Shown in pieces: positions 11,283 through 28,461 of a DNA stretch of 64,000 nt. Under the pieces are notes generated by a model. It ran no database searches. It was not told where the DNA came from and saw only the letters and a program-made list of their open reading frames with translations. The stretch comes from a virus (Duplodnaviria; Heunggongvirae; Uroviricota; Caudoviricetes). Within the stretch, counting starts at the first letter, position 1, and each line of letters opens with the position of its first letter. The translations under genes and the position numbers were made by a program. Location of the stretch: the IMG/VR virus record IMGVR_UViG_3300008110_000029; one strand, given 5' to 3'.

Positions 11283-11357
11283 TCTATCGCTCCTTGGTGT
11301 CACTGCGTTGTTGCAGTGTTTATAGTATACCCTCAGCTGTCCAAAATGTCAACCAAT

Positions 11358-11591
11358 TTACTCCGGTTTGAACACTAGATATTTGTGCTGTTTCAACAGC
11401 TGGATTGCCGCTCGGACCTCCCTGGCTCTGAGTTCCTGATACTCTAGGTTCTCACGTGCGGCCTTCAGAGTCTGCTCCTCGTCCTGATGATTAAAGAAGT
11501 GGTGTGTGCTGATGTACCACCTCTTACCCTCGTCTATGATCATCTTTATGGTGCCAAGGTTCTTGTACTGCTGGATCTCATTGACTTTCAT
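11358..11591 (-). CDS. hypothetical early protein
   Basis: 77-aa ORF. Confidence 0.6.
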   Translation of the reverse strand: MKVNEIQQYKNLGTIKMIIDEGKRWYISTHHFFNHQDEEQTLKAARENLEYQELRAREVRAAIQLLKQHKYLVFKPE

Positions 11592-11610
11592 AGTGGCTTC
11601 TTTCTAGAAT

Positions 11611-11642
11611 AAAAAAGCCCGGGGAGTCCCCTCAACCCGGGC
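11611..11642 (-). terminator. intrinsic terminator
   Basis: GCCCGG stem plus 6-T tail. Confidence 0.65.
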
Positions 11643-11668
11643 AAGGGGATCCAATCCCCGGAGCAACC

Positions 11669-11851
11669 TTAACGATATCCCTTTTGACGTATCATCAGCG
11701 TGGCCACCCACATCAAGGCCACACCCACTAGGCTGACTGCTAGACTGCACAGCAGATCGTAATCCGTAGTGCTCTGCTCAATGCCGCCTACCCCGCCTGC
11801 GGCTAGGATGATACCCATGAATACAAAAAATGCTATGACTCGATCTGACAT
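11669..11851 (-). CDS. two-TM small membrane protein
   Basis: AGGAGC RBS, own promoter, two hydrophobic segments. Confidence 0.75.
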   Translation of the reverse strand: MSDRVIAFFVFMGIILAAGGVGGIEQSTTDYDLLCSLAVSLVGVALMWVATLMIRQKGYR

Positions 11852-11903
11852 GTTCTGCTCCTTTGTTTAACTGTTTACAGTATAGCTTCTCCGGCCCAAC
11901 CTG

Positions 11904-12035
11904 TCAACCAAAATTTAATTTAATCTGATTGATCTCTCGGACCCGGCCCCGAGGTTTCTTCTGCAGATAGAACGCGAATCCTACGCGAAAGATCTTAACG
12001 AAATGCAGTCCGCCTACTCGCTTGTATGAAATCAT
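11904..12035 (-). CDS. 43-aa basic peptide (MISYKRVGGLHFVKIFRVGFAFY...), absent from track
   Basis: AGGAGCG RBS, manual translation. Confidence 0.65.
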   Translation of the reverse strand: MISYKRVGGLHFVKIFRVGFAFYLQKKPRGRVREINQIKLNFG

Positions 12036-12088
12036 CTGATCGCTCCTTGATTGAAAGGGGACTTACGCTGTCGCTGCCCCGAAACTGT

Positions 12089-12385
12089 TTAATAAACTTC
12101 GTCTGCGTAACCGTAGTCTTCGTCTGTGCCGTAGCCTGCGCTGGCCATTGCTGAATCAAAATCTCCGTCCATGCTTTCGTCCGGAGCACCCCAGGCGCAC
12201 TCACGTTCCTGTGCGTTGGTCAACTCCCAATCTTCCTGAATCTTTGCCTTGGCCAACTCCACGTCCCCGCCGCACAGTTCCAGCACATCGTTATAATCTG
12301 CTGCGTCCCAGCACTCGGCAACCCAGTGGCCGCCTGCTTCGTAGTTGTCCATTGCGAACTGTTGCAGTTGTTGGATTTTGCTCAT
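12089..12385 (-). CDS. acidic early protein
   Basis: own promoter and AGGAGC RBS, C-terminal SMDGDFDSAMASAGYGTDEDY. Confidence 0.8.
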   Translation of the reverse strand: MSKIQQLQQFAMDNYEAGGHWVAECWDAADYNDVLELCGGDVELAKAKIQEDWELTNAQERECAWGAPDESMDGDFDSAMASAGYGTDEDYGYADEVY

Positions 12386-12464
12386 TTTGGGCTCCTTTGT
12401 TTAGTTCACTGCGTTTGTGCAGTGTCTAAAGTATAGCGCAGGTTGTCCAATTTGTCAACCAAAA

Positions 12465-12752
12465 TCAGCAGCGATTTGTCTGGTAGGGTTTTCTTTGATT
12501 TTTAGGGAGGTGTCCCGCGCACATCTTTTCAGCGGCACGATCCCAGTGCGGAACCTGAGCGATCAAACTTTCTCCAGGCTTTGGATCCCACGGGCGGTCA
12601 CGAGGATCTCTACGATTCTCTGCCACGATGGTTTCTAAGGCTGCACAGCCTGTTAATGCACAGAGGATGAGTGCTGTACCGCACCACCTGCCTGCTGATG
12701 ATCCCAAAGTAGCTTTCTGGTTACCAGCGTGTTGACCTTGTTCTCTAGCCAT
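12465..12752 (-). CDS. possible lipoprotein (start uncertain)
   Basis: LILCALTGC lipobox-like segment. Confidence 0.45.
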   Translation of the reverse strand: MAREQGQHAGNQKATLGSSAGRWCGTALILCALTGCAALETIVAENRRDPRDRPWDPKPGESLIAQVPHWDRAAEKMCAGHLPKNQRKPYQTNRC

Positions 12753-12916
12753 TTCAGTTCCTCTTCTGTGAGTGTGTCAGTGTCCTGCTCGCCCTGCAGT
12801 ACCTTAATTATAGCTTGGGTTTGATCCTGTGTCAAGCTGTGATATTCACTTTCAACCCACTGAGTCAACTGCCGTCCCAGCTGCTGAGTTCTTCCTATCT
12901 TGCGCCAATCATTCAT
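12653..12916 (-). CDS. hypothetical protein
   Basis: 87 aa, ATGA coupling. Confidence 0.6.
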   Translation of the reverse strand: MNDWRKIGRTQQLGRQLTQWVESEYHSLTQDQTQAIIKVLQGEQDTDTLTEEELKWLENKVNTLVTRKLLWDHQQAGGAVQHSSSVH

Positions 12917-13286
12917 TTGAGGTTGCCTTGATTAATTCATTGCCCTCGACTATGACCAAACGCACATTGTTCATCTTGCTCTTGAGATCATCTATAAGGC
13001 TGTCACGATCACGGCCTTGGCCAAGGAATGAATCATCATCCTTGCGAAAGGCGTAGAGCTGACCTTGGTGCTGCTCTAGAGTTACTTCAATGACTGTGAG
13101 TTCATCTTCGGGGGTGGGTTCTGTCTCGAGTTCATACTTCTTCATCTGAGCCTTGAGCTGCTGCTCAGTGATGCCCATGTCTCGCATTATGGACAACATG
13201 GTGAAACGAGAAAATGCGGCATGTAGTCTCCATCCTATTGCTACGCCCAGGACCAAGACCAAAATCGTTAGAGTTGCATCATCCAT
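12909..13286 (-). CDS. membrane-anchored hypothetical protein (start MDDATL)
   Basis: N-terminal TM, TAAATA motif upstream, start trimmed from the track ORF. Confidence 0.65.
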   Translation of the reverse strand: MDDATLTILVLVLGVAIGWRLHAAFSRFTMLSIMRDMGITEQQLKAQMKKYELETEPTPEDELTVIEVTLEQHQGQLYAFRKDDDSFLGQGRDRDSLIDDLKSKMNNVRLVIVEGNELIKATSNE

Positions 13287-13347
13287 AATATTATTTAATC
13301 TATTTGTGTGTATAGTGCGGGCAGCGGGGCCTTGGGCCCCAACTGCC

Positions 13348-13692
13348 TCAATCCAGCCTAGAACCAGCGTAGGCTTGGAATCCGTATTTCTTAAACACCT
13401 GTGCTGCGGCCTCTGCGCCTGCTTCCAGTGTGTCCACATTCTGGCAACCAAACTTACTTGGGTTCCACATCTGCAGTCCCCCTGAGTAGGCTGGGCGGAT
13501 ATCGCATTCTTTCAAGGCCTTGCCCAACTTGGTATTTCCCTTGACGCCGTGGATGGTAACCCAGGCGAAGCCACAGGCAAACTGATCCTGACCGCCCAAC
13601 CTCTCTTGGAAGAACTTGGCTGCTGCCTGATGGGCCGCGGTCTGTGCCTCTTGAACCACTGCAGGGATCTGCTCTGGAGTTACTGTGATCAT
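13348..13692 (-). CDS. conserved phage hypothetical protein (CGFAWV...SRLD type)
   Basis: 114 aa, AGGAG RBS, motif pattern recalled from many phages. Confidence 0.8.
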   Translation of the reverse strand: MITVTPEQIPAVVQEAQTAAHQAAAKFFQERLGGQDQFACGFAWVTIHGVKGNTKLGKALKECDIRPAYSGGLQMWNPSKFGCQNVDTLEAGAEAAAQVFKKYGFQAYAGSRLD

Positions 13693-13814
13693 TGTGCGGT
13701 CTCCTTCATGATGGTCTGTGTCTTGCCCACGGCCTTGTCAATTGCTGAGGCCACGCCCGAGATACCAACTGTGGCCACGAACATGCCTGCCACGAACGCT
13801 ATCAAGATTTTCAT
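13689..13814 (-). CDS. 41-aa membrane peptide (MKILIAFVAGMFVATVGISG...), absent from track
   Basis: own promoter, RBS, ATGA coupling. Confidence 0.7.
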   Translation of the reverse strand: MKILIAFVAGMFVATVGISGVASAIDKAVGKTQTIMKETAQ

Positions 13815-13874
13815 CGCTCACTCCTTGTTGTCTAAGTGTTTACAGTATACTACCTTGCCTGCCCTTTGTCAACC

Positions 13875-13906
13875 AAAATAAAGACCCTGCTGTGTGCAGG
13901 GCCTTT
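13875..13906 (-). terminator. intrinsic terminator
   Basis: CCCTGC/GCAGGG stem plus T-rich tail. Confidence 0.6.
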
Positions 13907-13912
13907 GCTTAG

Positions 13913-14167
13913 TTAATTTACAATTATAATGTTATTTGTTGCTAGTTGCTGTTTTGCTGATTGTAATGCTTTGTTAATTGCTTGTGCTTTTTGTTGTGCA
14001 GTGTCTGTAATATTGCAAATGTCCCCGGTAGCGTAAACTGCGCTGCGTTGTGTTATGTGACTGTTATTGCAGAAGCTTACTAAAATGCGTAGTGTTTTTA
14101 GCTTTTTGTTTTGTACAATTTTAGCAAAAGCTTTTTGTGCAAGTATTGCGTTAGCGTAAGTTTGCAT
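13913..14167 (-). CDS. hypothetical early protein lacking Glu
   Basis: own promoter and AGGAGCG RBS. Confidence 0.75.
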   Translation of the reverse strand: MQTYANAILAQKAFAKIVQNKKLKTLRILVSFCNNSHITQRSAVYATGDICNITDTAQQKAQAINKALQSAKQQLATNNIIIVN

Positions 14168-14239
14168 TGTTGCGCTCCTTTTTGTTTAACAGTGTGTATA
14201 TAATAGCACCAGCTGTCCAAAAAGTCAACCAAAATGTTC

Positions 14240-14266
14240 AATAACCCGGCGCAGTGCCGGGTTATT
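14240..14266 (-). terminator. terminator-like hairpin
   Basis: perfect 11-bp stem AATAACCCGGC/GCCGGGTTATT. Confidence 0.65.
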
Positions 14267-14274
14267 GCTAACAG

Positions 14275-14550
14275 TTACGCATACAAGTAATTGTCGGTGC
14301 AATAGTGTACAGTTTTATAAAACTTGCTTTGTGCGTCGGTGTACATGTGCATAATTGTGTCGCAAAGTTGGACTGCATTTTTATTTTGCATAAACTGTAC
14401 AAGTGCTGCGTAAATTGTAACAATGTCGGTGTGTTGCTCGGCGCAGACAGTGTTGTCGGCGTTGACGTCGACAGTGCGTAAGTATTTTGCAATGTCGGCT
14501 TGCAAAAGTTGTACAATAATTGCTACGTCGGCGTTAGTAACTTTTTGCAT
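14275..14550 (-). CDS. hypothetical early protein (start MQKVTN)
   Basis: own promoter, GGAGC RBS. Confidence 0.75.
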   Translation of the reverse strand: MQKVTNADVAIIVQLLQADIAKYLRTVDVNADNTVCAEQHTDIVTIYAALVQFMQNKNAVQLCDTIMHMYTDAQSKFYKTVHYCTDNYLYA

Positions 14551-14680
14551 TGTTAGCTCCGGTAGTTGCACTGCGTTTTGCAGTGTTTAAATTATAGTAC
14601 CAAAACGCCGGACTGTCAACCAAAAAATTAGTTGTTAAAAAAGCAACCGGGTCAGTTGGGGGGCGTGTGCCCCCCTCCCC

Positions 14681-15160
14681 TTACTCTGCAGTTACCACGC
14701 TGCCTAGTTTGATGTTAAACACAATGCTGTCGTCCCCCGCCCTAAACTCGCTTGCCAGTGCCGCTGCCTGCGCCTCATCCCTAGTAATCTCTACACCGTT
14801 GCGTGTGTAGCGTGGCGCTTTGCGTTCCGCAGTCTTGTCCATTGTGCATCGCACATAGTATTCGCCCTTGTGTGCGATAATGTAGGGGAATACAGCCCAC
14901 TCGCCCCATGGCAAACCTGCATTCTCTGCTGGCAGTTCGCCAGTTGCTCGCTTCTCAATCACTTCCTCAATCTCGTCGTATACCTGTCCGATGATTGCGG
15001 TAAACTCTGAACGCTTAACAATAGCGTCCTGTCCCTTGCGTACCTTCAACATACGCTCCGTGACAAACTTGACTGGCTGTTGCTTCTTGCTCAACACCAA
15101 GTCCAACAGTTGTTGTGTGTTGTTGTCTGTGCCCTGAACTACTAGTTGTGCTATTTGCAT
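14681..15160 (-). CDS. conserved phage hypothetical protein
   Basis: own promoter and AGGAGC RBS, GLPWGEW..FPYII.HKG motif. Confidence 0.8.
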   Translation of the reverse strand: MQIAQLVVQGTDNNTQQLLDLVLSKKQQPVKFVTERMLKVRKGQDAIVKRSEFTAIIGQVYDEIEEVIEKRATGELPAENAGLPWGEWAVFPYIIAHKGEYYVRCTMDKTAERKAPRYTRNGVEITRDEAQAAALASEFRAGDDSIVFNIKLGSVVTAE

Positions 15161-15328
15161 TTGTTGCTCCTTAGTTGCCTGCGTATCGCAGTATCATTAG
15201 TATATGGCCAGCACACCAAAATGTCAACCAAAATATCAAATGTCCCATCAGTCCGTAGGGTTATTCATCATGTTCGTTCATCGTCATCATGCAGACATTC
15301 TAACACCGTTCGTCCATTTGGTCAAGCC

Positions 15329-15359
15329 AAAAAAAAGCCCTGAGCACGTAGCCCAGGGC
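15329..15359 (-). terminator. intrinsic terminator
   Basis: GCCCTG/CAGGGC stem plus 8-T tail. Confidence 0.75.
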
Positions 15360-15384
15360 CTGCCAATCCCGGGAGCGAATCGGG

Positions 15385-15681
15385 TTAGGCAGCAACAGTT
15401 GCCGCAGCAGCAGTACTTGCTGTAGCTGTGGCAGGGTTCTTCTTCGCGGTGTAGGCGATCGCAGCTTCCACAGCAGCATTGCCAGCACCAAAGCCACGAG
15501 CCACGAGTTCTTGAACGATCTCACCTTTGGTCATTGGCTTGCCAAGATCAACCAGCTCAACACCAGTGTGTCCGTTCTTGGCCAGAATCTTGATACGCAT
15601 CTGGTCATTGGCGAAACGCAGCTTGGTCTTGCCGTTAAGGGTTGAAACACCTGCTACACTAAAACGCTTGTCAGTCGACAT
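15385..15681 (-). CDS. conserved phage hypothetical protein with Ala-rich tail
   Basis: own promoter, AGAGG RBS. Confidence 0.8.
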   Translation of the reverse strand: MSTDKRFSVAGVSTLNGKTKLRFANDQMRIKILAKNGHTGVELVDLGKPMTKGEIVQELVARGFGAGNAAVEAAIAYTAKKNPATATASTAAAATVAA

Positions 15682-15770
15682 AATAATTACCTCTCTGTGT
15701 GTGAATAAAAACTACCAACCAATTTGATAGCATTTTGAGTATACTACCAAACCATTTGTCCGTCAACCAA

Positions 15771-15965
15771 TTATTTTTCCAAATTGTTTGGAATTGGCAA
15801 CAATTGGATTGTCACGGACTCCTTCTCATCAAGAGCGGCAATGAACTCGTCGTCGTAGATTAAGTCCTGAAGGGCTAAATCCAATAGTTCTTCCACCCTG
15901 CGATGATCTGCATCGCCCGCCCCACCGCATTCGATGGAGAAGGCAAAATTAAATGTTCTTGCCAT
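15771..15965 (-). CDS. small acidic protein
   Basis: 64 aa. Confidence 0.6.
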   Translation of the reverse strand: MARTFNFAFSIECGGAGDADHRRVEELLDLALQDLIYDDEFIAALDEKESVTIQLLPIPNNLEK

Positions 15966-16001
15966 GCTGTTTCCCTATATAGTCGTATATAGCAGCGGGG
16001 C

Positions 16002-16628
16002 CTACTGGTCCACTAACTTCAAGGCCTCGCCGCCTTCTTTGGTCCAGCGATAGAGATCCTCATCCATACGCTCTTCCTCTTCGTATTCAGCCAGGCTCTC
16101 GCTGATGGCAAAGAACTCATCTAGATCTTCGGGCAAGGTATCCTTGGCACCCTGACTGTCACCCCAATCTGAGTAGCAGTCATCACAGCCGTTGTCCCAT
16201 ACACCAGCAAAGCACATACCTGGTTCGTAGTAGTATGCACGAACTGTGTAGCCCTGTTCAACCAACTCCTCATAGACTCCTGTGGGAGGTGCCCAGGCTG
16301 AATCAAAACTTGCAGTCATCAAGTTACCATCAGGATGAATATCCAAGGTGCCATCCTGGCCACCTACATCCCATTTAGTTCCCCAACGGCCAGACTGGAA
16401 TGAATACCAATCACTGTGACCAAACTTCTCTATGTTGCTCTTAACTCGTGCTTCGTGTGCGGCCTGTTCGTCTCCTCCCACACTGCCTGCCACGGTTTCA
16501 GTCAACTCCTTGGGTGTAGGAATCACATGGTGACAGAACTCGCCACGCTCGTAGGCTTCAGCCAGCGCCTTGATCTTGGCAGGATCCTCATGACCAATTT
16601 CTATAAAGTTGTTGCACCAATTAGGCAT
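16002..16628 (-). CDS. DUF1281/YubB-like (ferredoxin-like) protein
   Basis: MPNWCNN, WGTKWD, F.SAWAPP and YYEPGMCFAG motifs. Confidence 0.75.
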   Translation of the reverse strand: MPNWCNNFIEIGHEDPAKIKALAEAYERGEFCHHVIPTPKELTETVAGSVGGDEQAAHEARVKSNIEKFGHSDWYSFQSGRWGTKWDVGGQDGTLDIHPDGNLMTASFDSAWAPPTGVYEELVEQGYTVRAYYYEPGMCFAGVWDNGCDDCYSDWGDSQGAKDTLPEDLDEFFAISESLAEYEEEERMDEDLYRWTKEGGEALKLVDQ

Positions 16629-16629
16629 A

Positions 16630-16857
16630 CTAGGCTCCTCGAATCATGTTTAACAAACGATCGTTCTGTGCGTCTTGATATTGACGTTGCATCACTGTGT
16701 CGAAGCGATCAATCATACGATCCTCAATCCTCTGTGCATTCATGTCAAAGATCTGACTCACGGTCTTGTAGATCTTGTGCTGTGCCCACGGAGTAGTCTC
16801 GGGGTCCTCTAGCACGGCCATTGCACGACGAATGTAATCAAACTCTTGAGGTGTCAT
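16630..16857 (-). CDS. hypothetical early protein (start MTPQEF)
   Basis: own promoter and AGGAGCG RBS. Confidence 0.75.
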   Translation of the reverse strand: MTPQEFDYIRRAMAVLEDPETTPWAQHKIYKTVSQIFDMNAQRIEDRMIDRFDTVMQRQYQDAQNDRLLNMIRGA

Positions 16858-16922
16858 AGTTCGCTCCTGTTTAGTTAGTGTGTATATAATAACACACACT
16901 AACCAAACTGTCAACCAAAATC

Positions 16923-17282
16923 TTATACAACCTTGACCTTGCTATAGCCTGCGGACAACAATGCCAGAGCATCTTGTGCAGTTGCTGCCATAGTCACTAC
17001 ACGCTTACGGTTAATATGGCCAGTAGTTGGATAGTAACGACCACCGCCATTGCCGATGGCATTGAAGTTACCACTACCAGGATTGAATCGATTATTGTTT
17101 CCCAGAATCCAACGATTGAGGCGACCGTCCTTGATTGATCGAAGGTGATCACTGTTTTCGAGAATGTTCATTCTCTTAGACATATCCTCGCTCCAGTAAC
17201 CAAGAGCGTTGGCCACGTCTTTAGTATAGCACAGGGGATGAGCAGCGACGTATTCGCAAATCATCTGATTTTGACTTTTCAT
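16923..17282 (-). CDS. possible winged-helix protein
   Basis: own promoter, N-terminal HTH-like segment TKDVANALG. Confidence 0.6.
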   Translation of the reverse strand: MKSQNQMICEYVAAHPLCYTKDVANALGYWSEDMSKRMNILENSDHLRSIKDGRLNRWILGNNNRFNPGSGNFNAIGNGGGRYYPTTGHINRKRVVTMAATAQDALALLSAGYSKVKVV

Positions 17283-17348
17283 GGGTTCTCCATAAAGTGT
17301 TGTTTAGTTCAAACAGTATAACAGGGGGTTGCCCCCCTGTCAACCAAT

Positions 17349-17702
17349 TTATGCCTCTGCAAATGCCTCCAACGCTGCCTGTGCCGCACCGTCCAGCATT
17401 ACGCCATCTTGTGCTTTAATCTTGTCTGCAGTTACCTTTATGCGGTATGCGTCCATCTCTGCAGTCTTTGCTTCCATAGCAGGCCACACTACGTCTTGCG
17501 GGTTAAGGTAAGCACCTGTGTAGTCTACCTTGTCCTCTTTCAGTGTAATCTCGCCTGCCTTAATGCCTTCAAACACCATGCCCCATGTAGGCTGTTGCGG
17601 ACGGCCAGTAGGGCCAAACAGTTCCACTGCCTTTGCCTGCAGTTTCTCTGTTGCAATTTCATTCAAGCGACGGAGAAAGTAATTGCGTTGTTCCTGTTCC
17701 AT
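17349..17702 (-). CDS. hypothetical early protein
   Basis: own promoter and AGGAGCG RBS. Confidence 0.8.
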   Translation of the reverse strand: MEQEQRNYFLRRLNEIATEKLQAKAVELFGPTGRPQQPTWGMVFEGIKAGEITLKEDKVDYTGAYLNPQDVVWPAMEAKTAEMDAYRIKVTADKIKAQDGVMLDGAAQAALEAFAEA

Positions 17703-17781
17703 AATACGCTCCTAAAAAGTCTGTCACTGCAAAATTGCAGTGTGTGTATATTAACACACACTGCCCAATCTGTCAACCGTT

Positions 17782-18093
17782 TTATGCCTCAAAATTTTCT
17801 ACAATCATAATACGTCCAGCCAGCAAGTCTTCTACCAGTTGCACTGCTCGCCGCTCTGTGCCGCCAATGTGCCAGTCATAGTGCCCCATGGGAGTGCCAT
17901 ACTCTTTCCAGTCGTAAATCGTTGCTACTGTGCCGTCGCTAAACTCAATGCACCACTCCTGCGTGGTCTTGTCGCCACCGCCCATCCCCTCCCCCAGCAA
18001 GTCCTGCAGCTTTGCAAAGGTGGTTCCTACATAGCCCTGCAGATGTGTGCCGTTGAACTTTTCTGCAAAGTAATCGTAAACTCGTGCTTCCAT
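17782..18093 (-). CDS. conserved phage hypothetical protein
   Basis: own promoter and RBS, DKT..EW...ATIYDWK...WHIGG. Confidence 0.8.
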   Translation of the reverse strand: MEARVYDYFAEKFNGTHLQGYVGTTFAKLQDLLGEGMGGGDKTTQEWCIEFSDGTVATIYDWKEYGTPMGHYDWHIGGTERRAVQLVEDLLAGRIMIVENFEA

Positions 18094-18166
18094 GTTGCGC
18101 TCCTAGTATGTCACTGCGTTATTGCAGTGTGTGTATAGTAACACACACTGCCCAAAATGTCAAGTG

Positions 18167-18382
18167 TTAAATTGTGCTGTACTTTCTGTATTCCTTGCCA
18201 CCCACGTTGCTGTACCACAGCCCGTTAGTTTTTTTGTAATAACCCTGCTTGTACCAGTTTTTAATCTGTGTTGCGTGTTGCTGTCTGCCCTGCTCTGCAA
18301 TAGCTTGTTCCAACGTCATTGTAGCACCTGCTGCGTCTTGTGCTGCCTGCTGTGCTTGTTGTTGTGCGTGTAGTGCTAGCAT
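18167..18382 (-). CDS. Gln/Ala-rich early protein
   Basis: own promoter and AGGAGC RBS. Confidence 0.7.
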   Translation of the reverse strand: MLALHAQQQAQQAAQDAAGATMTLEQAIAEQGRQQHATQIKNWYKQGYYKKTNGLWYSNVGGKEYRKYSTI

Positions 18383-18460
18383 AGCTTGCTCCTTAGTTGC
18401 ACTGCGTTATTGCAGTGTGTGTATATTAACACACACTGCCCAAAATGTCAACCAAAATGT

Positions 18461-18784
18461 TTATACTTCCATGCTTGCAAGTTCGTCTTCTTGCATACCC
18501 TGCTCTGTAAAGCGCACACCAAACCCTAGTGCATCACTAATAGCACTTTCAAATGCACTGTCTGTGTATATGTCCCATGTGCTGTTGTGCGTTACATTAA
18601 CCATAACGCTTACATTGTCGTCATAAGCATTTGTCACAATGCTAATGCCTGTCACACGCACTTGCCTGTCAGCCTCGCAGCCCCACAAGCCGTCGCCAGC
18701 TGTCCAAACAGTAAAGTCGCAGTCAAAGTCTTGTGCAGTGTAGTCGCCGTCAACCTCAAACCGTGTAAGTGTAAGTTTTTGCAT
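18461..18784 (-). CDS. acidic early protein
   Basis: own promoter and AGGAGC RBS. Confidence 0.8.
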   Translation of the reverse strand: MQKLTLTRFEVDGDYTAQDFDCDFTVWTAGDGLWGCEADRQVRVTGISIVTNAYDDNVSVMVNVTHNSTWDIYTDSAFESAISDALGFGVRFTEQGMQEDELASMEV

Positions 18785-18858
18785 TGTGTGCTCCTGTGTG
18801 TCACTGCGTTAGTGCAGTGTGTATATAATAGCACCAGCTGTTCAAAATGTCAACCAAA

Positions 18859-19017
18859 TTATTCTGCGTAACCGTCTTCTTCCCAGCCCTCGTAGGTGGC
18901 ATTAACTCCCGCAGAGTTTACATCAGTCATCCCAGCAATCTCGTCTGCTGCTTCTGCTGTGTCTGCTTCAACCTGTAAAGTATATGTTACAGTCTGTGTG
19001 TAATAAAATTTAGGCAT
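18859..19017 (-). CDS. small acidic protein (start MPKFYY)
   Basis: own promoter and AGGAGCG RBS. Confidence 0.75.
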   Translation of the reverse strand: MPKFYYTQTVTYTLQVEADTAEAADEIAGMTDVNSAGVNATYEGWEEDGYAE

Positions 19018-19074
19018 CTCTCGCTCCTGTAAAATTAAACAGCGTGTGTATAGTAACACACGCTGTCCAAAATA

Positions 19075-19365
19075 TCAATCTCCAGAATCAATTTGAAAAC
19101 GATCTCCACACTCACTGCAGGTGAATTCTGTCAGACACCTGCCTACATTCTTAGAAACATATTTGTGGGTGCAAGGCACTCCATCTTTGTCAAGCCGTAC
19201 TTCGCCTGTAGGCCGACCGTACATGTACTGACCACCGCAGTTCGTGCAGGGCACAGTGTCTGTGTCCTTGTCATAGCCAGCGATAACCTTCTTGTATCGC
19301 TCCATACTGATCGGCACTGCGACTCTGCCGCTACCATTACAAACTGGACAACATCCTTTTTCCAT
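19075..19365 (-). CDS. Cys-rich zinc-finger protein (DnaJ-type CxxCxGxG repeats)
   Basis: CPVCNGSG, CTNCGG and CSEC, own promoter and RBS. Confidence 0.75.
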   Translation of the reverse strand: MEKGCCPVCNGSGRVAVPISMERYKKVIAGYDKDTDTVPCTNCGGQYMYGRPTGEVRLDKDGVPCTHKYVSKNVGRCLTEFTCSECGDRFQIDSGD

Positions 19366-19426
19366 GTTTCGCTCCTAATTTCTTACTGTATGTCTAGTAT
19401 AGCACCACTCGTCCAAAATGTCAACC

Positions 19427-19459
19427 AAAATAAAAGCTGTGGCATTTCTGCCACAGCTT
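19427..19459 (-). terminator. intrinsic terminator
   Basis: 11-bp stem AAGCTGTGGCA/TGCCACAGCTT plus T-rich tail. Confidence 0.75.
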
Positions 19460-19479
19460 CCTTAGTTGCTAAATCTTAA

Positions 19480-19737
19480 TTAAAACTGTAAATTACGCCC
19501 TGTGCGCTCTCGCTTTTTACTACGCTTGTCTACTTTAACTGCAATTTTAGTCTTGCGGTAGTTAATGTGTATGCCTTGTGCGCTAAACACTTCCCCCAGC
19601 ACTAGCTTCATACGCTCTGCGCGGAGTTTTTGCTTGTCTGTATACAAGCTAGCGTTGGCAATATTGCGCATACTTGCATCCTGCGCTGCCCACCACTTAA
19701 CAGTTGCTTCTTTAGTATCCAGTTGCTTATAACGCAT
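19480..19737 (-). CDS. basic early protein
   Basis: own promoter and AGGAGCG RBS. Confidence 0.7.
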   Translation of the reverse strand: MRYKQLDTKEATVKWWAAQDASMRNIANASLYTDKQKLRAERMKLVLGEVFSAQGIHINYRKTKIAVKVDKRSKKRERTGRNLQF

Positions 19738-19802
19738 AACACGCTCCTTGGGTTACACTGCACATCGCAGTATCAATACTATAACACCAGTTGTCCAATC
19801 TG

Positions 19803-19916
19803 TCAACCAATAAAAACCCAGTAGGCAGTAAGGACAACGGCGTAGATCACAAGTGCGGGGATGACCTGTGACATTGTGTCACTAACAATCCATTCCGCGT
19901 ATTCTTTATCGTTCAT
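19803..19916 (-). CDS. 37-aa membrane peptide, absent from track
   Basis: ATGA coupling, C-terminal TM. Confidence 0.55.
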   Translation of the reverse strand: MNDKEYAEWIVSDTMSQVIPALVIYAVVLTAYWVFIG

Positions 19917-20356
19917 GTGGGGATATCTCCTGTATGTATAGATTTAAGAAATGCAGTTAGTGTCCTACTACGTCCAACCATTAACTTCACTGGCCAGTTG
20001 TAGTTGACATGATAGTCCGTAAGGGCCATGACCACACTGTGTTTGACTCCACCTTTGGGGCCAAGTACCTTTACTTCGTAGCGTTCGCGATGATTCCACG
20101 TTTCTTTCTTATTGGCTGACTTAACTTTAGTGGCAATGATAGTTTTGCCATTGTGAGTTGCTTGATACCCGCTAGAGGTAACCTCATGTGGAATCTGGTG
20201 CAGCATCTCACTGAGAGTGATCAGAGCAGCACGTTCTTGCTGCCTCTTGAGACGACCACCGATGCTGACTAGATCACTGGCTGTTAGGCCGCTGAGTAAG
20301 GCCATTGTGAGTATGCGCTCACGTGCATCTTTTTGCTGTTCAGTTAAACGTGCCAT
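19913..20356 (-). CDS. hypothetical protein
   Basis: about 147 aa, promoter at 20397-20425 inside the upstream gene. Confidence 0.7.
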   Translation of the reverse strand: MARLTEQQKDARERILTMALLSGLTASDLVSIGGRLKRQQERAALITLSEMLHQIPHEVTSSGYQATHNGKTIIATKVKSANKKETWNHRERYEVKVLGPKGGVKHSVVMALTDYHVNYNWPVKLMVGRSRTLTAFLKSIHTGDIPT

Positions 20357-20648
20357 CGTGTTCATCCAATAAACGTGTTACTACTTTGTTCTTTCTAGTA
20401 TATGTCTTTTTGACTTTCTTGTCAACCTTTTTGGTCTTAGGTTCAAATTCTCTAAAGACATAATACTCTATCAAACAGTTGCGAATCATAATCGTGAGAT
20501 CCAGGCCGCTGTTCTCAGGGACAATGAATCTGACCGGACATTTACCCCAACCTCCATATTCTAGAAAGTCGTAGTACCACTTCCTATGCTGCTTGTTAGC
20601 GGGGTCAAAGGCCACAAGCGGCCGGGCGAGGTATTCTAGTTTGCTCAT
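20340..20648 (-). CDS. conserved phage hypothetical protein
   Basis: 102 aa, coupled. Confidence 0.7.
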   Translation of the reverse strand: MSKLEYLARPLVAFDPANKQHRKWYYDFLEYGGWGKCPVRFIVPENSGLDLTIMIRNCLIEYYVFREFEPKTKKVDKKVKKTYTRKNKVVTRLLDEHDGTFN

Positions 20649-20833
20649 GCGCCCCAGAATGGACTATATGGTTCGTCACATTCTACCTTAAAGTTCAGAC
20701 CAGTATCTGAAATCAGCTGCTGTACGTGGGGCATGTCGTAGTCGTTCATGACATGAATAGTTTCGCCATTCATATAGACATCATAGATGCCCATGTCCTC
20801 AAGCGAAGATAGGATCTCTTTGGGTTTGATCAT
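20645..20833 (-). CDS. small hypothetical protein
   Basis: 62 aa, coupled. Confidence 0.6.
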   Translation of the reverse strand: MIKPKEILSSLEDMGIYDVYMNGETIHVMNDYDMPHVQQLISDTGLNFKVECDEPYSPFWGA

Positions 20834-21118
20834 TTGTACCTTTCAATGCATTCATAATTCGTAGACGATCAAGATGTTCCCTAGTCGTCATTGGTTCAAC
20901 CACCTCACGGACTGCTGCGCTAGTTGCCAACATGCCCTTGAGGAACTGTTGCATCTCCTTGGCCACCAGATGCTGCGATAAGTTGTTGCCTCCGTTGTAA
21001 AGGCAGTACAATCGCTGATAGCCAGGGCGATAACTCTCTATGTGATAGTTGGTCCCCAGGCTATCGTTCACCTGGGTAACCATCTCACGTATACCGTACT
21101 TGTTAATCCTCATGGTCA
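20799..21118 (-). CDS. hypothetical protein (start uncertain)
   Basis: trimmed from track ORF 20799..21152. Confidence 0.55.
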
Positions 21119-21237
21119 TACCAGTTGCGAGGAAGCTTGTCTTCTTGCTCATCCAAGTAGTCGTTGTACTCTTGCTCGTACTCCTGCCACTCTTCGTCCG
21201 TCATATCGTAGGTTTCAGGGTTGTTGAAGCCATCCAT
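21103..21237 (-). CDS. 44-aa highly acidic peptide, absent from track
   Basis: own promoter, AGGAG RBS, 17 D/E versus 2 K/R. Confidence 0.7.
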   Translation of the reverse strand: MDGFNNPETYDMTDEEWQEYEQEYNDYLDEQEDKLPRNWYDHED

Positions 21238-21295
21238 ATTAGTCTCCTAGACTGTGTTGAACATGATCACAGTATACGACAGAGTCACGACTCTG

Positions 21296-21439
21296 TCAAC
21301 CTATTTCACTTAGAAATCCCTGCAGCTTGTTCTCGGGAACATTGCGCAGCAGTTCTTCGATCGCAGTGAGGTCACCGCTCTCAACATCAATGAGGATCTG
21401 CTCGAGGGCAGCATCAATCAAACCTTGATCTAGTTCCAT
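21296..21439 (-). CDS. 47-aa acidic helical peptide, absent from track
   Basis: AAGGA RBS, manual translation MELDQGLIDAALEQIL... Confidence 0.65.
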   Translation of the reverse strand: MELDQGLIDAALEQILIDVESGDLTAIEELLRNVPENKLQGFLSEIG

Positions 21440-21450
21440 GATGATTCCTT

Positions 21451-21525
21451 TCAGTCTGTGTGTGGAGGAAGGTCGTAGTCCGCTGGGTCTGCGGGAAACC
21501 TAGGTATGTTGTTGGGGTCCTTCAT
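21451..21525 (-). CDS. 24-aa Pro/Asp-rich micropeptide, absent from track
   Basis: own promoter and AGGAG RBS. Confidence 0.5.
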   Translation of the reverse strand: MKDPNNIPRFPADPADYDLPPHTD

Positions 21526-21587
21526 ACAAACTCCTATGTTGTTTAGTGTTCGTATTATATGATAGAGTCACGACTCTGTCAAGAACT

Positions 21588-22160
21588 TTATTTGAAGCCC
21601 ATGACCATGTAACGGTTAAAGCCCCAGTCAGGATATTGAAATCGTTTAGTACCTGTGAACAGTTGTTCCTTCAAAGGCCATGCAGCAGCAAAAGCCTCGT
21701 CTGACTCATAGCTGGCCACGTGATCTTCATGAGGCATATCGTTCCCTTGCAGCACTGTGAATGTATTCTCAGGGATGTTGTCGAACCACTGACGTGACTC
21801 TATGTGCTCTACGCTGGTGTTGATTATAATACTAGGCTGATGTCCCAATGCCCACCAGTTGATGTTGTTGACGTCGTGCGTAACAGCTGAGAACTCTCCC
21901 TGCCAGTGCCACAGACGATTAACGTGTACCGCGATAGATTCGCATTCAGGATCTATGTCCCAACTGCGAACATGCTGGATGGGGATTCTACTTTGTGTGC
22001 GTAGGATGAAATTGGTAAGTGCATACCAGCCTGCGAAGATCTCTATCCTATGGCCCTGCAGCGGGGCCTGTATGTCATTGATGGAGAGTACCTGACTCAG
22101 CTTCTCAGCCAGCCAAATCTTACTGCCAATTTGACCGGATGAGAAGCTGTCCCAATTCAT
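21588..22160 (-). CDS. class I SAM-dependent methyltransferase-like protein
   Basis: IEIFAGWY glycine-loop variant, WDID acidic motif II, INTSVEH. Confidence 0.55.
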   Translation of the reverse strand: MNWDSFSSGQIGSKIWLAEKLSQVLSINDIQAPLQGHRIEIFAGWYALTNFILRTQSRIPIQHVRSWDIDPECESIAVHVNRLWHWQGEFSAVTHDVNNINWWALGHQPSIIINTSVEHIESRQWFDNIPENTFTVLQGNDMPHEDHVASYESDEAFAAAWPLKEQLFTGTKRFQYPDWGFNRYMVMGFK

Positions 22161-23359
22161 TAGGCCTTCTCGTCGTAGATAACAGTCTGACCAAAGGGTG
22201 CTTCGTTATTACTGCCCTTGACAATGAACAAGGTATCGCAGTAGTCTTCATCACCCCAACCACCGCAGGGGTAGCCGTCTGTAAACATAATGAACTTCTT
22301 GGGCTGGATGTCGTTCTCTTTCATAAACTGCCAGTTGGCTTCAAAGTCCGTACCACCACCGCCTTGGAGATCATAAGTCAACAGTTCGTCGCCGTTGTCC
22401 TGCGTAATCTTCTGCGGATTGTAAACGTCTGTGTCAAAGCACCAGATGTGAATGTTGTAGTCTGAATATTGATCCATGATGCCCTTGACTTCACTCAAGA
22501 ACACCTTAGCATCAGCATCGCCAATTGAACCACTCATATCCAATGCAATGGCCACGTCAATGGTCTCATCGTTCTTCATGCCTGGAAGGATAGCGCCACT
22601 GTGCATTGACTTACGATTAGGGCGAGTAAAGGAGTAGTCGTTGCGGATGATGCTTTGAATGTTCATACGGATCAACTCACGCCAGTTCATCTTAGGCTCA
22701 GTGAGGTCTTTGATCAAACGCTGAATGCCCAACGGAGTCTTACCTGCACCTGCGGCCGCGGCACTCTGAACCATAGCCTGCTTGATCTCATCGCGAATAG
22801 CCTGTGCTTCTTCTTTGGTAAGAACTGGAGCACCCTTGCCATCCTTACCATCTTTGCCTGCACCCTGACCTTCGTGCTCTTGCTCGTTGATATGCTGGTC
22901 CAACAATTCGCCCAACTGATCCAGACTAATGGTCTTGACGTTCTTCATCAGGTCGTCGTAGATCTCTTCCCAGGCCATGCCGCGATACTTGTTGTCTTGG
23001 CAAATCTTAACTTCAGTGATACGCTCGCCAATGCGGTCGTCTACAAGGATCTGGTTCACTGCGAAGTCTTGTGCGATGTTAGACATCTGACGATCACGCG
23101 AACCTACACGACCAAAGTGATCAAACACACAATGGCAAATCTCATGTGCGAACAAGAACTCTAGTTTCTTAACGCTGAGCTTCTCAACGAACTTGGTGTT
23201 GTAGTAGAAGTTGCGTCCGTCAGTTGCGGCTGTAGGGCACCAGTCGTCTGCACACTTGATCTGCATACGAGTTGCCATGTTACCAAAGAACGGTTGCTTC
23301 AGCAGAAGCCCTACACGAGCGGTAATGAGCTTTTCAACGATTGCGGGATCTTCTTTCAT
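22160..23359 (-). CDS. VWA-like domain protein with putative metallopeptidase (DUF2201-type)
   Basis: TAATDG, HEICH (HExxH), MIDAS-like DMSGS, GGGTDF, MFTDGY. Confidence 0.85.
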   Translation of the reverse strand: MKEDPAIVEKLITARVGLLLKQPFFGNMATRMQIKCADDWCPTAATDGRNFYYNTKFVEKLSVKKLEFLFAHEICHCVFDHFGRVGSRDRQMSNIAQDFAVNQILVDDRIGERITEVKICQDNKYRGMAWEEIYDDLMKNVKTISLDQLGELLDQHINEQEHEGQGAGKDGKDGKGAPVLTKEEAQAIRDEIKQAMVQSAAAAGAGKTPLGIQRLIKDLTEPKMNWRELIRMNIQSIIRNDYSFTRPNRKSMHSGAILPGMKNDETIDVAIALDMSGSIGDADAKVFLSEVKGIMDQYSDYNIHIWCFDTDVYNPQKITQDNGDELLTYDLQGGGGTDFEANWQFMKENDIQPKKFIMFTDGYPCGGWGDEDYCDTLFIVKGSNNEAPFGQTVIYDEKA

Positions 23360-23473
23360 ATGGGCTCCTTTGTCTAAGTATGTATATTATATGGCCTAGT
23401 GCCTATTCTGTCAACCAAAAAAGGTGAGTGAGGGACCCTGAACAAGTCCCCCACTCTAGCCATGGTGGAGGTC

Positions 23474-24550
23474 TTAATTCTCCATGGCCTTCAAAACATA
23501 CTTACCGTATTTCTTGTGGAACTCATCAAAGTTCTTCATCTTTGTTGCGTCCAACGGCAAGTTGTAGTTAGTAAGGGCAGTCTTAGCACCCATCACAACC
23601 AACTCTGTTGGGAAGTTATCCATCATGTAGCGGAAGAAGCAGTCCGCCTGACTGTCCCAATTAGTAGCCTTCTTGTCTGCTTGATCTTTGAGCTCGTAGC
23701 ACAAGCTCACAGTCAAGGAATACATGGCTGACACTTCCTTAATCTGCAGGTCCTTAACCTTGCCGCTAAGGATGTCGGGAGCCTTAGGCAGTTTACCAGC
23801 AATCTTACGATGTGCCATAAACTTAACAGCCAAGCCGTCACCAATAGCACCTGCAACCAAGTCAGTGAGCGTGTCAGTGTCAGTGTCATCGTCCTGCAGG
23901 AGATCGCTGACGAACACCCATGAACGAGGAGTTGCAAAAGCCTTAGAGCTGGACTTGGGATCAAAGTCATACAAGTCCTGCTTGGCAAAGCCTACATAAC
24001 CAACAACCTCAGGATGGATCTTGTTAGCAGTAGCCCACTCTTGGAAATCGTCAAAGTCAACTTTGGCTTCCAAGTGCAGGAAGCGGTTGGCCAACGGAGC
24101 AGGCATACGATAGGTAACACCCTTGTCGCCATCGCGGTTACCAGCCGCTACAATGTCCACGCCCTTGGGCAGGATGTATTGTCCTACACGACGGTTCAGA
24201 ACCAACTGGTAGGCGGCCGCTTGGACTGCGGGAGGAGCGGAGTTGAGCTCGTCCAAGAAGATGATTGCACGGCTGTCTGGGTCAGTGGGCAATTCTGCTG
24301 GGGGTGCCCAAACCATTGTGCCTTGTTCTGCGTTGTAATAAGGGATACCTTTGATGTCTGTAGGTTCCCAGAGTGGTAGACGAATATCAATTACTTCTCT
24401 CCCCTCGGAGTCGCCAATCTGCTTGACGATGTCACTCTTACCAATACCGGGCGGGCCCCACAGGAACACCGGACGGCGCTTTTGAATTGCTTTTTGAATT
24501 GCCTTCTTGGCCTTCTTAGGACCAACCTGGCGAATAGAATTATCAGACAT
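23474..24550 (-). CDS. MoxR-like AAA+ ATPase
   Basis: Walker A GPPGIGKS, Walker B IFLDELN, AAGN, PLANRF. Confidence 0.88.
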   Translation of the reverse strand: MSDNSIRQVGPKKAKKAIQKAIQKRRPVFLWGPPGIGKSDIVKQIGDSEGREVIDIRLPLWEPTDIKGIPYYNAEQGTMVWAPPAELPTDPDSRAIIFLDELNSAPPAVQAAAYQLVLNRRVGQYILPKGVDIVAAGNRDGDKGVTYRMPAPLANRFLHLEAKVDFDDFQEWATANKIHPEVVGYVGFAKQDLYDFDPKSSSKAFATPRSWVFVSDLLQDDDTDTDTLTDLVAGAIGDGLAVKFMAHRKIAGKLPKAPDILSGKVKDLQIKEVSAMYSLTVSLCYELKDQADKKATNWDSQADCFFRYMMDNFPTELVVMGAKTALTNYNLPLDATKMKNFDEFHKKYGKYVLKAMEN

Positions 24551-24619
24551 TTAAGACCTCCAAAAAAAGTGTTTTGCTACTTGCTACTGACTGTGTCGTT
24601 CAGTTCATATATTATGCGT

Positions 24620-25270
24620 TCAAACTGCTGTCTTGTCAACGACAATCTTCACATAATTCAACTGTGTTGTATTGTCGCCACGCACGTTCTTGATCTTGCC
24701 CTTGATGGTATACTCACCGCCCACAGGCAGCTCTTTGTTGAACCAGAAGTCCACGAAGCTGTTGTTCATACGAGCGGTGATATGATATTTGTTGTAGTGA
24801 ATGCTATAGCGTTGTTTGATTACCTGAATGTCACCCTCCACACGCTGACCATCAGTGCCTGTCAGCTGATCGCTTTCACGGATCTGATCCATGAGCTGCT
24901 TGTTGGCATGATCCTTGAGCATGACGTAGGGGAGGCAGCTGACCACGCTGAGCTGATAGCTGTCTTTGGCCGAATCAAACTCCTCACGCTGAGTCAGCTT
25001 GAGCGCAGTGGTCTGAAAGTCGTTGATCTTGCCACTGAGCTGCAACAGAAGGTAACCAGTGAAGTGACGGCGAACTTCGCGGCCTTCAATGATATCATTC
25101 TCAGTTACGGGATTGGGTTCTTTGCCCATCAACCAGAACTTGACCAAGACCTTGTTGCAGCGAGTCTCGATCTTCTGAGTCTCAGTGTTGTAGACGTCGC
25201 TCTTGAAGTAGCCGCCGTTGATACGGTGTGCTGCAACTGCTGTACCCCAAACAAGATCTGCTGTTAGCAT
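24620..25270 (-). CDS. conserved phage hypothetical protein (possible C-terminal OB fold)
   Basis: own promoter and AGGAGCG RBS. Confidence 0.7.
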   Translation of the reverse strand: MLTADLVWGTAVAAHRINGGYFKSDVYNTETQKIETRCNKVLVKFWLMGKEPNPVTENDIIEGREVRRHFTGYLLLQLSGKINDFQTTALKLTQREEFDSAKDSYQLSVVSCLPYVMLKDHANKQLMDQIRESDQLTGTDGQRVEGDIQVIKQRYSIHYNKYHITARMNNSFVDFWFNKELPVGGEYTIKGKIKNVRGDNTTQLNYVKIVVDKTAV

Positions 25271-25328
25271 TATCGCTCCTTGTGTCTAAGTATGTATATT
25301 ATATGACCTCTTTTGGATTTTGTCAACC

Positions 25329-25352
25329 AAAAGAAAAGCCGCACTAGGCGGC
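25329..25352 (-). terminator. intrinsic terminator
   Basis: GCCGC/GCGGC stem plus TTTTCTTTT. Confidence 0.65.
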
Positions 25353-25404
25353 TCAAAGAAATTCCCCGGGAGCGAATCGGATCTTTTACTTTGTGTAGTT
25401 CCTC

Positions 25405-25650
25405 TTAGGCGAACACGTTAGCGCGGCTACCAGTGATGTCACGAGCAGAAACGCTGTACTGAGCGCGGCCGTCTTTGTTCTTGTGCTTGCGAACAACAAG
25501 ACCTGCTTGACGGAACTCAGTCATACGAGCGCGGAGATTCTTGATACCGTAGGTGCTGTCAGCTTGCAAAGAGCTGAGGCTGTTACCTGTACCGCGGAGA
25601 TGTGACTCCAAGAATTCCTTTTGAGTAGTTTTGATAGTTGTAAATGGCAT
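25405..25650 (-). CDS. small basic winged-HTH-like protein
   Basis: AAGGA RBS, HTH-like spacing with NLRARMTEFR recognition helix. Confidence 0.6.
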   Translation of the reverse strand: MPFTTIKTTQKEFLESHLRGTGNSLSSLQADSTYGIKNLRARMTEFRQAGLVVRKHKNKDGRAQYSVSARDITGSRANVFA

Positions 25651-25742
25651 TTTAAGTTTCCTTTGTTAAATGGCTAACATTCGTTAGCGTCCTGTTATTA
25701 TGCACTCTTGACCATCCCTGATCAAGAGTGCATTTTGCCAAT

Positions 25743-25931
25743 TTACTTCTTAACAGTAATATCTGAACGAATAAACATACCAATTACCAAAACAGCCAAC
25801 CACGTCCAGAAGGTGAACGGAATGGCCAGAGTGGGGAACAGTGTGTTCAATGCCCAAATAACTGCCCAGGGGAACAGTACTATCAGAACCAATAGGGCAA
25901 TAATAAACCCTGCGACACCAAGCTTGATCAT
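25743..25931 (-). CDS. two-TM membrane protein (start MIKLGV)
   Basis: AAGGAG RBS, hydrophobic. Confidence 0.7.
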   Translation of the reverse strand: MIKLGVAGFIIALLVLIVLFPWAVIWALNTLFPTLAIPFTFWTWLAVLVIGMFIRSDITVKK

Positions 25932-25933
25932 AA

Positions 25934-27016: not shown

Positions 27017-27082
27017 GCTCGCTCTCCTGTGTGTGTAAAGTCATTATTATAGGGCCACTAGGGCCCTATGTCAACCAAAACC

Positions 27083-27550
27083 TTACCAGCTGCTACAGTA
27101 TTCAAAATCCCAAGCTTCTGGCAGTTCCAAACAGTCGTTGACAATTTGGACTGTGGTCTCTAGATCATCGTAGTAGTATTGATCGTAGTCAGTGCTGCCA
27201 AAGAAGAATCCGCTGGCTGAGGGCAACAGAGTTGCTGCACGATCTCTGTTGGCCAGTACTTCTTCACAGAGCTGCTTGAGCTTGATCAACTGCTCCCTGC
27301 TGACGTAGTGAGGCTTACATTCGTCCTCGCCCCCCTGCACGTTGTCAACGAACCATTGATGAATAGCATTGGCCTTGCGCCAGTAGCCGGCCTCAATGCG
27401 TACTTCTTTGACGCAGCTGTCTGCACCCGATCGATCCCGGCCCTTGAGTTCTGGGAACTGCTCTTGAATAGCTTCTGCACGTTCTTTGTCTGCTTCATCC
27501 ATGTAACCGCTGATGTAGCGTTTACCGCTGAGGTACATGTCTAAACCCAT
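27083..27550 (-). CDS. conserved phage hypothetical protein (MGLDMYL...YWRKAN type)
   Basis: own promoter and AGGAGCG RBS. Confidence 0.8.
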   Translation of the reverse strand: MGLDMYLSGKRYISGYMDEADKERAEAIQEQFPELKGRDRSGADSCVKEVRIEAGYWRKANAIHQWFVDNVQGGEDECKPHYVSREQLIKLKQLCEEVLANRDRAATLLPSASGFFFGSTDYDQYYYDDLETTVQIVNDCLELPEAWDFEYCSSW

Positions 27551-27593
27551 GATTCGCTCCTAAGTAGTTTAAAGGAAGTACTAGTATACGATC

Positions 27594-28085: not shown

Positions 28086-28086
28086 A

Positions 28087-28461
28087 TTAGACCTCTACAG
28101 TGTGTGAATGACGCAGCGACAGCATGAACAGACGTTGGCTTAACTGTGCTGCTGCCTGTTTGGCCTGCTGTAGCGCAGTACCGATTATATCCTCAGCTGT
28201 GCCATCTGTCAATACCTCGCGGGCATCACCATAGCAACAGCCACCTAGATACTCTGAGGCCAGCTCGTGATCATCTATCAGTACACGAACACGCAGCATG
28301 AACCAGTCATAGTAGCCCGTGTCAATCTGCTCACAGAGCTGACTGATATCAGTAACTGAGTCATCGAAACAGTCCCGAGGATGCATGTCTTCCCAGGTCT
28401 TGTCCACTATGATGTCAAAGCCATCCCGCTCCATGCGGGCCAATTGATCAAAATGTCGCAT
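28087..28461 (-). CDS. hypothetical protein (start MRHFDQ)
   Basis: trimmed track ORF. Confidence 0.65.
   Translation of the reverse strand: MRHFDQLARMERDGFDIIVDKTWEDMHPRDCFDDSVTDISQLCEQIDTGYYDWFMLRVRVLIDDHELASEYLGGCCYGDAREVLTDGTAEDIIGTALQQAKQAAAQLSQRLFMLSLRHSHTVEV

Follow-up and report, generated by a model that had tools for sequence, protein, structure and literature searches.

In a 64,000-nucleotide stretch of viral DNA (the window, IMG/VR record IMGVR_UViG_3300008110_000029), the -10 hexamers of several early promoters lie in the loops of inverted repeats, which raises the question of whether such stems act in the DNA of the promoter itself or in an RNA that runs through it. The source phage is large and lytic (DnaB, ligase, AAA ATPase and virion genes are present in the window), its nearest cultured relatives by DnaB are PA5oct (49% identity) and Atu_ph07 (52% identity), related contigs reach 260 kb, and the sequencing runs that contain this phage group are mostly lake and freshwater metagenomes. 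By these comparisons it is a freshwater jumbo phage related to PA5oct, a phage that depends on the host RNA polymerase (PMC7318152). The beta-subunit family PF00562 is absent from three related genomes (the positive control worked), a search of the same number of related genomes for PF00940, run without a positive control, gave no match, and the largest ORF in the window does not exceed 511 amino acids.

The promoters belong to an array of approximately 25 co-directional sigma70 promoter/SD cassettes on the minus strand (11301-28772), mostly one per small gene, in which TTGACA-17-TAnnnT is followed by an SD and then by a small ORF. Sites that fit the sigma70 consensus number 36 compared with 12.6 in shuffles, and the five hairpin cassettes match the promoter consensus at 9-11 out of 12 positions. 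The cassette genes are small and have no confident family match. PA5oct contains 19 sites with the promoter pattern and Atu_ph07 contains two, with no dense array in either. Stems are also found at other positions within the array: in the spacer (17343, 21299 and 27074), around the -35 (25326) and upstream (19424 and 14228). [quoted passage not shown] A cassette of unrelated sequence at 15700-15766 (minus strand) has the same three-arm layout as the hairpin cassettes (spacer arm, -10 in the loop region, +1 arm and leader arm), contains G.T pairs on the sense strand and is conserved in strains. Inverted repeats at 25309-25334 and 20397-20425 put the -35 box in the loop or an arm, representing other PeSL-like registers. 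With regard to the genes of the array, a 119-aa ORF at 16923-17282 has a weak MarR-family match (PHROG 1687, E=1.6e-4) and no Pfam match, and is missing at this position in four related loci (L079, L088, L099 and L104), and the 208-aa gene at 16002-16628 has in-frame internal length variants of 192 and 166 aa in strains (L061 and L062, joint at 16385-16608).

The inverted repeats are real. Perfect 11-bp arms around a 6-nt loop were found exactly where an earlier note on this DNA had reported them (17737-17764, 18124-18151, 18412-18439 and 19039-19066), as was a copy with 10-bp arms and a 10-nt loop (16874-16903). Between positions 16801 and 19200 there are four inverted repeats of at least 11 bp, compared with none in each of 300 dinucleotide shuffles. 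The loops are, as the same note had stated, the -10 hexamers of minus-strand sigma70-type early promoters with a 17-nt spacer, an extended TG and -35 elements at 17776, 18163, 18451 and 19078. On the minus strand the loop of the first copy (17748-17753) reads TAATAT with the -35 at 17771-17776, that of the second (18135-18140) reads TACTAT with the -35 at 18158-18163 and a leader hairpin at 18112-18129, and that of the third (18423-18428) reads TAATAT with the -35 at 18446-18451 and a leader hairpin at 18400-18417. The 19039 copy, also on the minus strand with a TACTAT loop, shows the compensatory differences ascribed to it, which affect positions 1 and 5 of both arms; the upstream stop codon lies inside its -35 TTGATA (19073-19078), it has no leader hairpin and it is the only copy with a T-rich run after the stem. 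The fifth copy, whose promoter has its -35 at 16909-16914 and whose -10 loop reads TATTAT, adopts the same 11/6/11 geometry with one G.T pair on the sense strand, and around the core at 16874-16903 its stem lengthens to approximately 17 pairs with two sense-strand G.T pairs (16869-16908, minus strand). Three of the four perfect copies are near-identical repeats and hence not independent events, so that the independent arm sequences in the window number three instead of five. The arms of the perfect copies, which flank an AT-rich 6-nt centre, are predicted to form DNA hairpins of approximately -12 kcal/mol on either strand.

An exact search of IMG/VR for the full 28-mer returned 0 matches. The core GTGTGT/ACACAC, tried as a marker, returned 33 matches, mostly unrelated promoters with unpaired outer arms, and was set aside as common and uninformative. 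The plus strand across the loops at 17737-17764, 18124-18151 and 18412-18439 reads TATAGT or TATATT, a better -10 match than the sense hexamer; an antisense promoter with this mirror -10 was considered and dropped, there being no -35 at the right distance. Two metatranscriptome runs contain contigs of 150-250 nt at a depth of 2-3.6, unstranded and possibly derived from DNA, and those at 16827-16978 and 18362-18517 each cross a hairpin promoter; with strand and origin in doubt, these contigs were set aside as evidence.

The search for relatives fixed only the -35, the -10 and the right arm, and the sequences that it collected are not phylogenetically independent but represent roughly 7-10 lineages. 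Within the lineage of this phage (73-89% DNA identity) the left arm is retained and the GCAGT-type palindrome is nearly invariant, and about half of the members have an inner C.A mismatch that gives an 8-nt loop. A sister lineage carries the same right arm and leader with the left arm further upstream, forming a 13-14-bp stem with a 3-nt loop in which the -10 is paired; the same half-site is spaced 13 nt there and 6 nt here. One genome (G003) contains both registers, 0 and -3.5. The centre-0 register recurs with different arms in L052, L053, L322, L361 and L018, and unrelated arm sequences were identified in L052, L082, L322, L340 and L361. Overall, stems scoring at least 8 are present at 45 out of 504 non-redundant promoters compared with 2.1 in column shuffles (approximately 20-fold), and the long-stem centres in this set range from -14 to +1. 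The stems that overlap the -10 in relatives are 10-14 bp long, have centres from -7 to +2 and often hold the -10 paired in the stem, and, whatever the register, the 3' arm lies over the stretch that is melted in the open complex. Few -10-centred dyads are present in the distant relatives that were identified by protein. The check for covariation across relatives bears out that the structure is kept, through covarying arms and through unrelated arm sequences in other lineages. The exact geometry with the -10 as the loop did not hold up as the conserved feature: in the sequences compared, the hairpin is conserved and -10-as-loop is only one register of several. The stems are under selection and are a variant of a known cassette class.

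The same gene module is found with the arm in some strains and without it in others (m6 and m7). The window itself provides an internal control, a sister cassette at 18802-18853 (minus strand) that has the leader hairpin but no upstream arm, the same module carrying the arm in L079 and L099. Module m5 has moved in L060 and modules m27, m31 and m24 are inserted, with the changes at cassettes, and contigs have loose ends at cassettes (19078, 16903 and 18459). Go-back joints (mini-circles) were not found in the contigs, which drop rare forms.

The stems show asymmetries of strand and gene context. The interior non-Watson-Crick pairs of stems overlapping the -10 comprise ten G.T, one A.C and two others on the sense strand, compared with a null of 18:17:55 (about 1:1:3), and among the spacer-class stems GNRA or UNCG loops are found in 13 out of 22 on the sense strand and in none on the antisense strand. 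All stems overlapping the -10 (57/57) have a co-directional ORF that ends at most 120 nt upstream. The upstream co-directional stop lies within 15 nt of the -35 in 53 of these 57, compared with 219 out of 505 promoters (43%) without a stem (OR 17, the control promoters including non-array sites), and 56 of the 57 have no upstream U-tract terminator. In the window, for example, the 103-aa ORFan at 17782-18093 (minus strand) has its stop 5 nt before the -35 of the next cassette. Mutual exclusion between promoter stems and upstream hairpins or terminators was not significant (p=0.33 and p=0.11). A U-tract is absent after the stems (a mean of 1.5 T in 8 nt compared with 3.3 for upstream hairpins), and only one of the five copies in the window, the 19039 copy, is terminator-like by prediction. 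The lack of a U-tract makes canonical intrinsic termination doubtful, and as judged from their sequences the stems are probably not canonical terminators. Taken together, the asymmetries in these sequences favour the sense strand. Part of the G.T bias could stem from C-to-T mutation on the non-template strand, some of the G.T pairs involve fixed -10 bases, and the sense-strand bias fits displaced non-template single-stranded DNA as well as RNA.

A second, shorter fold overlaps the long stem. The earlier note had proposed that one arm pairs alternatively with the leader to give mutually exclusive folds of the DNA; the alternative pairing exists in three copies, whereas a mutually exclusive DNA switch is not supported. 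At the first copy the leader hairpin (17725-17742, minus strand) starts at the predicted +1 (17741), and its first arm is the 3' arm of the long stem. The leader hairpin begins 7 nt after the -10, at the +1 predicted from spacing; the ACTGC arm is found exactly 7 nt after the -10 in approximately nine cassettes, and six of these are without the upstream arm. In the collection as a whole, leader hairpins with varying loop lengths start 5-7 nt after the -10 in 29 cases compared with 3.6 expected, part of the promoter set having been selected with this motif by the search pattern. Since the hairpin lies at the predicted +1 and is present without the upstream arm, it would be a 5' mRNA leader and not a DNA switch. 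In a read-through RNA the long stem (-19.9 kcal/mol) is predicted to win over the leader hairpin (-8.5 kcal/mol) and forms first, and an RNA that starts at +1 does not contain the upstream arm, so that the fold would be set by where transcription starts; the simplest view is that each fold belongs to a different RNA. Because SD accessibility changes little (0.38-0.72 in the read-through RNA and 0.47-0.75 in the +1 RNA), a translational switch was rejected. A pattern search for the leader alone gave mostly chance matches. A 5' hairpin is reported to impede conversion by RppH and to block RppH-dependent decay (PMC3997798). The leader hairpins resemble these mRNA-stabilizing 5'-terminal stem-loops in starting at the first nucleotide of the predicted transcript and differ in having only 5-6 bp and a start site predicted from spacing. 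They are tied more tightly than the long stems to TC/CC-poor genes (median observed/expected 0.07 compared with 0.84, a statistic that ignores kinship), and the same 3' motif of the promoter appears to drive tRNA-like sequences directly in L091, L105 and L118.

The four 11-bp copies had also been placed within a GA-depleted island. The depletion is real and strand-specific (a loss of TC and CC from the coding strand), but the 19039 copy lies at its edge and the gene upstream is not depleted. The loss goes gene by gene, and many related genes are at exactly zero. Genes with zero or near-zero TC and CC, on the coding strand only, occupy 17349-19017, 19480-19737 and 13913-15160 of the window and adjoin normal genes. 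Within the first of these segments, all on the minus strand, lie a 117-aa ORFan (17349-17702, SD at 17708-17713, predicted to be driven by the 17776 cassette) with four sense-strand TC compared with 12.8 expected, a 71-aa ORFan (18167-18382) and a 107-aa ORFan (18461-18784) that both lack any TC or CC on the sense strand, and a 52-aa ORF (18859-19017, predicted to be driven by the 19078 cassette) with one TC compared with 6.3 expected. Similar genes are found in loci L035, L079, L084, L096, L485, L486 and L488, and a 160-codon gene of L486 contains 0 TC/CC compared with 35.9 expected. The enrichment of stems overlapping the -10 beside TC/CC-free genes is stronger upstream (OR 8) than it is downstream (OR 4), and such stems also occur elsewhere. 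TC/CC-free arms are present in 21 out of 24 stems overlapping the -10, and spacers between two TC/CC-free genes are themselves TC/CC-free in 21 out of 21 cases. Under such a rule G/C tracts are unavailable to a perfect stem, and this may be why the arms are long and alternating and straddle the -10. Candidates for the cause of the depletion are an ssDNA deaminase, UV damage whose repair is biased by strand, or a nuclease or modifier of RNA directed at YC. The genes and spacers without TC and CC on the sense strand are the more striking neighbouring feature, and the link of the cassettes to such genes may matter more than the hairpins.

On balance, and with moderate confidence, the sequence comparisons favour a PeSL cassette in which the stem is the 3'-end hairpin of a read-through mRNA. 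The array shares with the PeSLs of RB49 and phi1 the repeated sigma70 promoter (TTGACA-17-TAnnnT) after an upstream stop, followed by an SD, a start codon and small ORFans in an intergenic layout, an AT-rich upstream run (here judged by inspection), a stem-loop in one of five positions, including the spacer and over the -10, and gene exchange with shuffling at the cassettes. PeSL stems are most often located between the boxes or overlapping the -10, and one stem (whichever subclass it belongs to) terminated transcription in vivo (PMC2839356); in the PeSL literature (Arbiol et al. 2010, PMC2839356; Comeau et al. 2014, PMC4122927) no test specific to the -10-overlapping subclass was found. In a scan of RB49, at least eight promoters had arms of 6-10 bp around a 6-nt loop whose centre lies 1 nt upstream of the middle of the -10; they lack U-tracts and hold five of the six -10 bases in the loop. 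RB49 also has spacer-class stems that resemble the one at 17343. The differences are that this phage is not T4-type by its nearest DnaB, that its stems have a greater length (10-14 bp) and consist of alternating purines and pyrimidines free of TC and CC rather than of polyG/polyC, that an additional 5' leader hairpin overlaps the 3' arm in many cassettes, and that the cassettes are enriched next to TC/CC-free genes. PolyG/polyC tracts are typical but not obligatory in PeSL stems; they are missing from the -10 class here and present in the 17343 spacer-class cassette, and the PeSLs of PST and nt-1 likewise depart from them.

Each cassette starts a few bases after the preceding co-directional stop, leaving no room for a separate terminator, and contains a 10-14-bp stem. 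As a PeSL-type cassette, the DNA would be an ordinary duplex sigma70 promoter, and the stem would fold in sense-strand RNA produced by read-through from the upstream gene, where it would form the 3'-end hairpin of that mRNA and may act as a pause, a weak terminator or a barrier to 3' exonucleases. The RNA from the cassette's own +1 would lack the upstream arm and form the short leader hairpin at its 5' terminus, a structure that should shield it against 5'-dependent decay, and the repeats may double as crossover sites for the shuffling of gene modules. Arms that lack G/C tracts (alternating purine-pyrimidine and TC/CC-free) would have to be long and so would straddle the fixed hexamer, which is probably why the -10 lies in the loop in this lineage.

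The alternatives differ in the molecule on which the stem would act. Structure at the DNA level might instead damp or gate initiation, with supercoiling or R-loops behind strong tandem polymerases letting the non-template strand (or both strands) fold, and the fold capturing the discriminator and +1 and distorting the -35/-10 spacing as feedback repression. The predicted stability of the perfect 11-bp arms on either strand and the 3' arm over the melting region in every register are in keeping with this, as are the TC/CC-free spacers of all 21 cassettes between TC/CC-free genes, which imply that the sense-strand constraint reaches upstream of +1. Furthermore, PMC6060812 cites Horwitz and Loeb (1988) for a cruciform that repressed, not activated, an E. 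coli sigma70 promoter. However, a true cruciform predicts no strand bias of G.T pairs whereas a ratio of 10:1 to A.C was observed, and the tight link to stop codons and the RNA tetraloops of the sister class remain unexplained, and this explanation is regarded as unlikely. Its narrower form, in which long TC/CC-free stems act on the non-template strand exposed (by supercoiling or R-loops) in the early island with the strongest transcription and fold over the discriminator and -10 to gate sigma70 re-initiation, is slightly less likely still. If true, exposure of the non-template strand would account for TC and CC being missing from that strand alone, in the genes there and even in spacers that are not transcribed, and the stems would represent a structure-gated class of sigma70 promoter common to the -10 subclass of RB49 PeSLs. 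The dyad operator that the earlier note had offered as its alternative, covering the -10 for a dimeric phage or host regulator that shuts off the early promoters, is also decidedly unlikely. The near-invariant palindrome and the weak MarR-like match within the array (16923-17282) speak for an operator, but the conserved half-site and spacing that it calls for are found only within this lineage: the window alone contains three different outer-arm sequences, the half-site spacing changes in the sister lineage with the centre paired, the arms of five other loci are unrelated, and an operator gives no reason for the G.T strand bias.

A neutral origin, in which TC/CC avoidance forces a low-complexity TG/CA sequence that template switching perfects and gene conversion spreads among the repeats, must be rated lower again, as improbable. 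It would account for the ACACAC motif that is common after the -10 of promoters without a stem, for an arm that comes and goes before the same gene and for the rarity of -10-centred dyads in distant relatives, but not for the excess of long stems over column shuffles, the repeated independent origins with unrelated arms and registers, the compensated pairs or the contextual bias towards stop codons. Least probable is the earlier reading of a pre-opened cruciform or ssDNA promoter that offers the -10 to sigma70 as a single-stranded loop for immediate expression and is switched off by refolding. Sigma70 reads the -10 on the non-template strand, the same one that is favoured in these stems, and the recurrence of the centre-0 register in lineages with different arms fits this reading as well. 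However, the most frequent of the other registers, including that of the sister lineage and one of the two of G003, have the -10 base-paired within the stem, the inner pair is often a C.A mismatch, extrusion would use 11 of the 17 spacer bases and leave the -35 out of register, the promoters are near-consensus as duplex, and the arm is missing from neighbouring cassettes and, in other strains, from the same modules. The two systems named as precedents differ from the cassettes in their defining features. The promoters of the N4 vRNAP also have an inverted repeat near -11 in early promoters, but depend on a phage vRNAP, on EcoSSB and on a hairpin of the template strand whose 3-nt loop (5'G, 3'A) is closed by a G:C pair (PMC4496689); here the loop is 6-8 nt, the sigma70 boxes have the canonical form and the wobble pairs favour the non-template strand. 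Frpo of the F-plasmid leading region likewise combines a stem-loop and sigma70 boxes upstream of early-expressed genes, but rebuilds its -35 and -10 only when ssDNA folds and loses its activity as duplex (PMC9849209), whereas both boxes here are correctly spaced (17 nt) in the linear duplex with the -35 outside the stem.

If the PeSL-type reading with its 3'-end hairpin is right, a single unit of 60 nt would combine the 3' end of one mRNA, a promoter, the protected 5' end of the next mRNA and a crossover site, and would do so with stems that have no U-tracts. With this array, the range of PeSL cassettes reaches a freshwater group of jumbo phages related to PA5oct. The strand bias, the freedom of register and the adjacency to stop codons provide comparative evidence on the role of the stems that overlap the -10, a role that is testable in cultured RB49.
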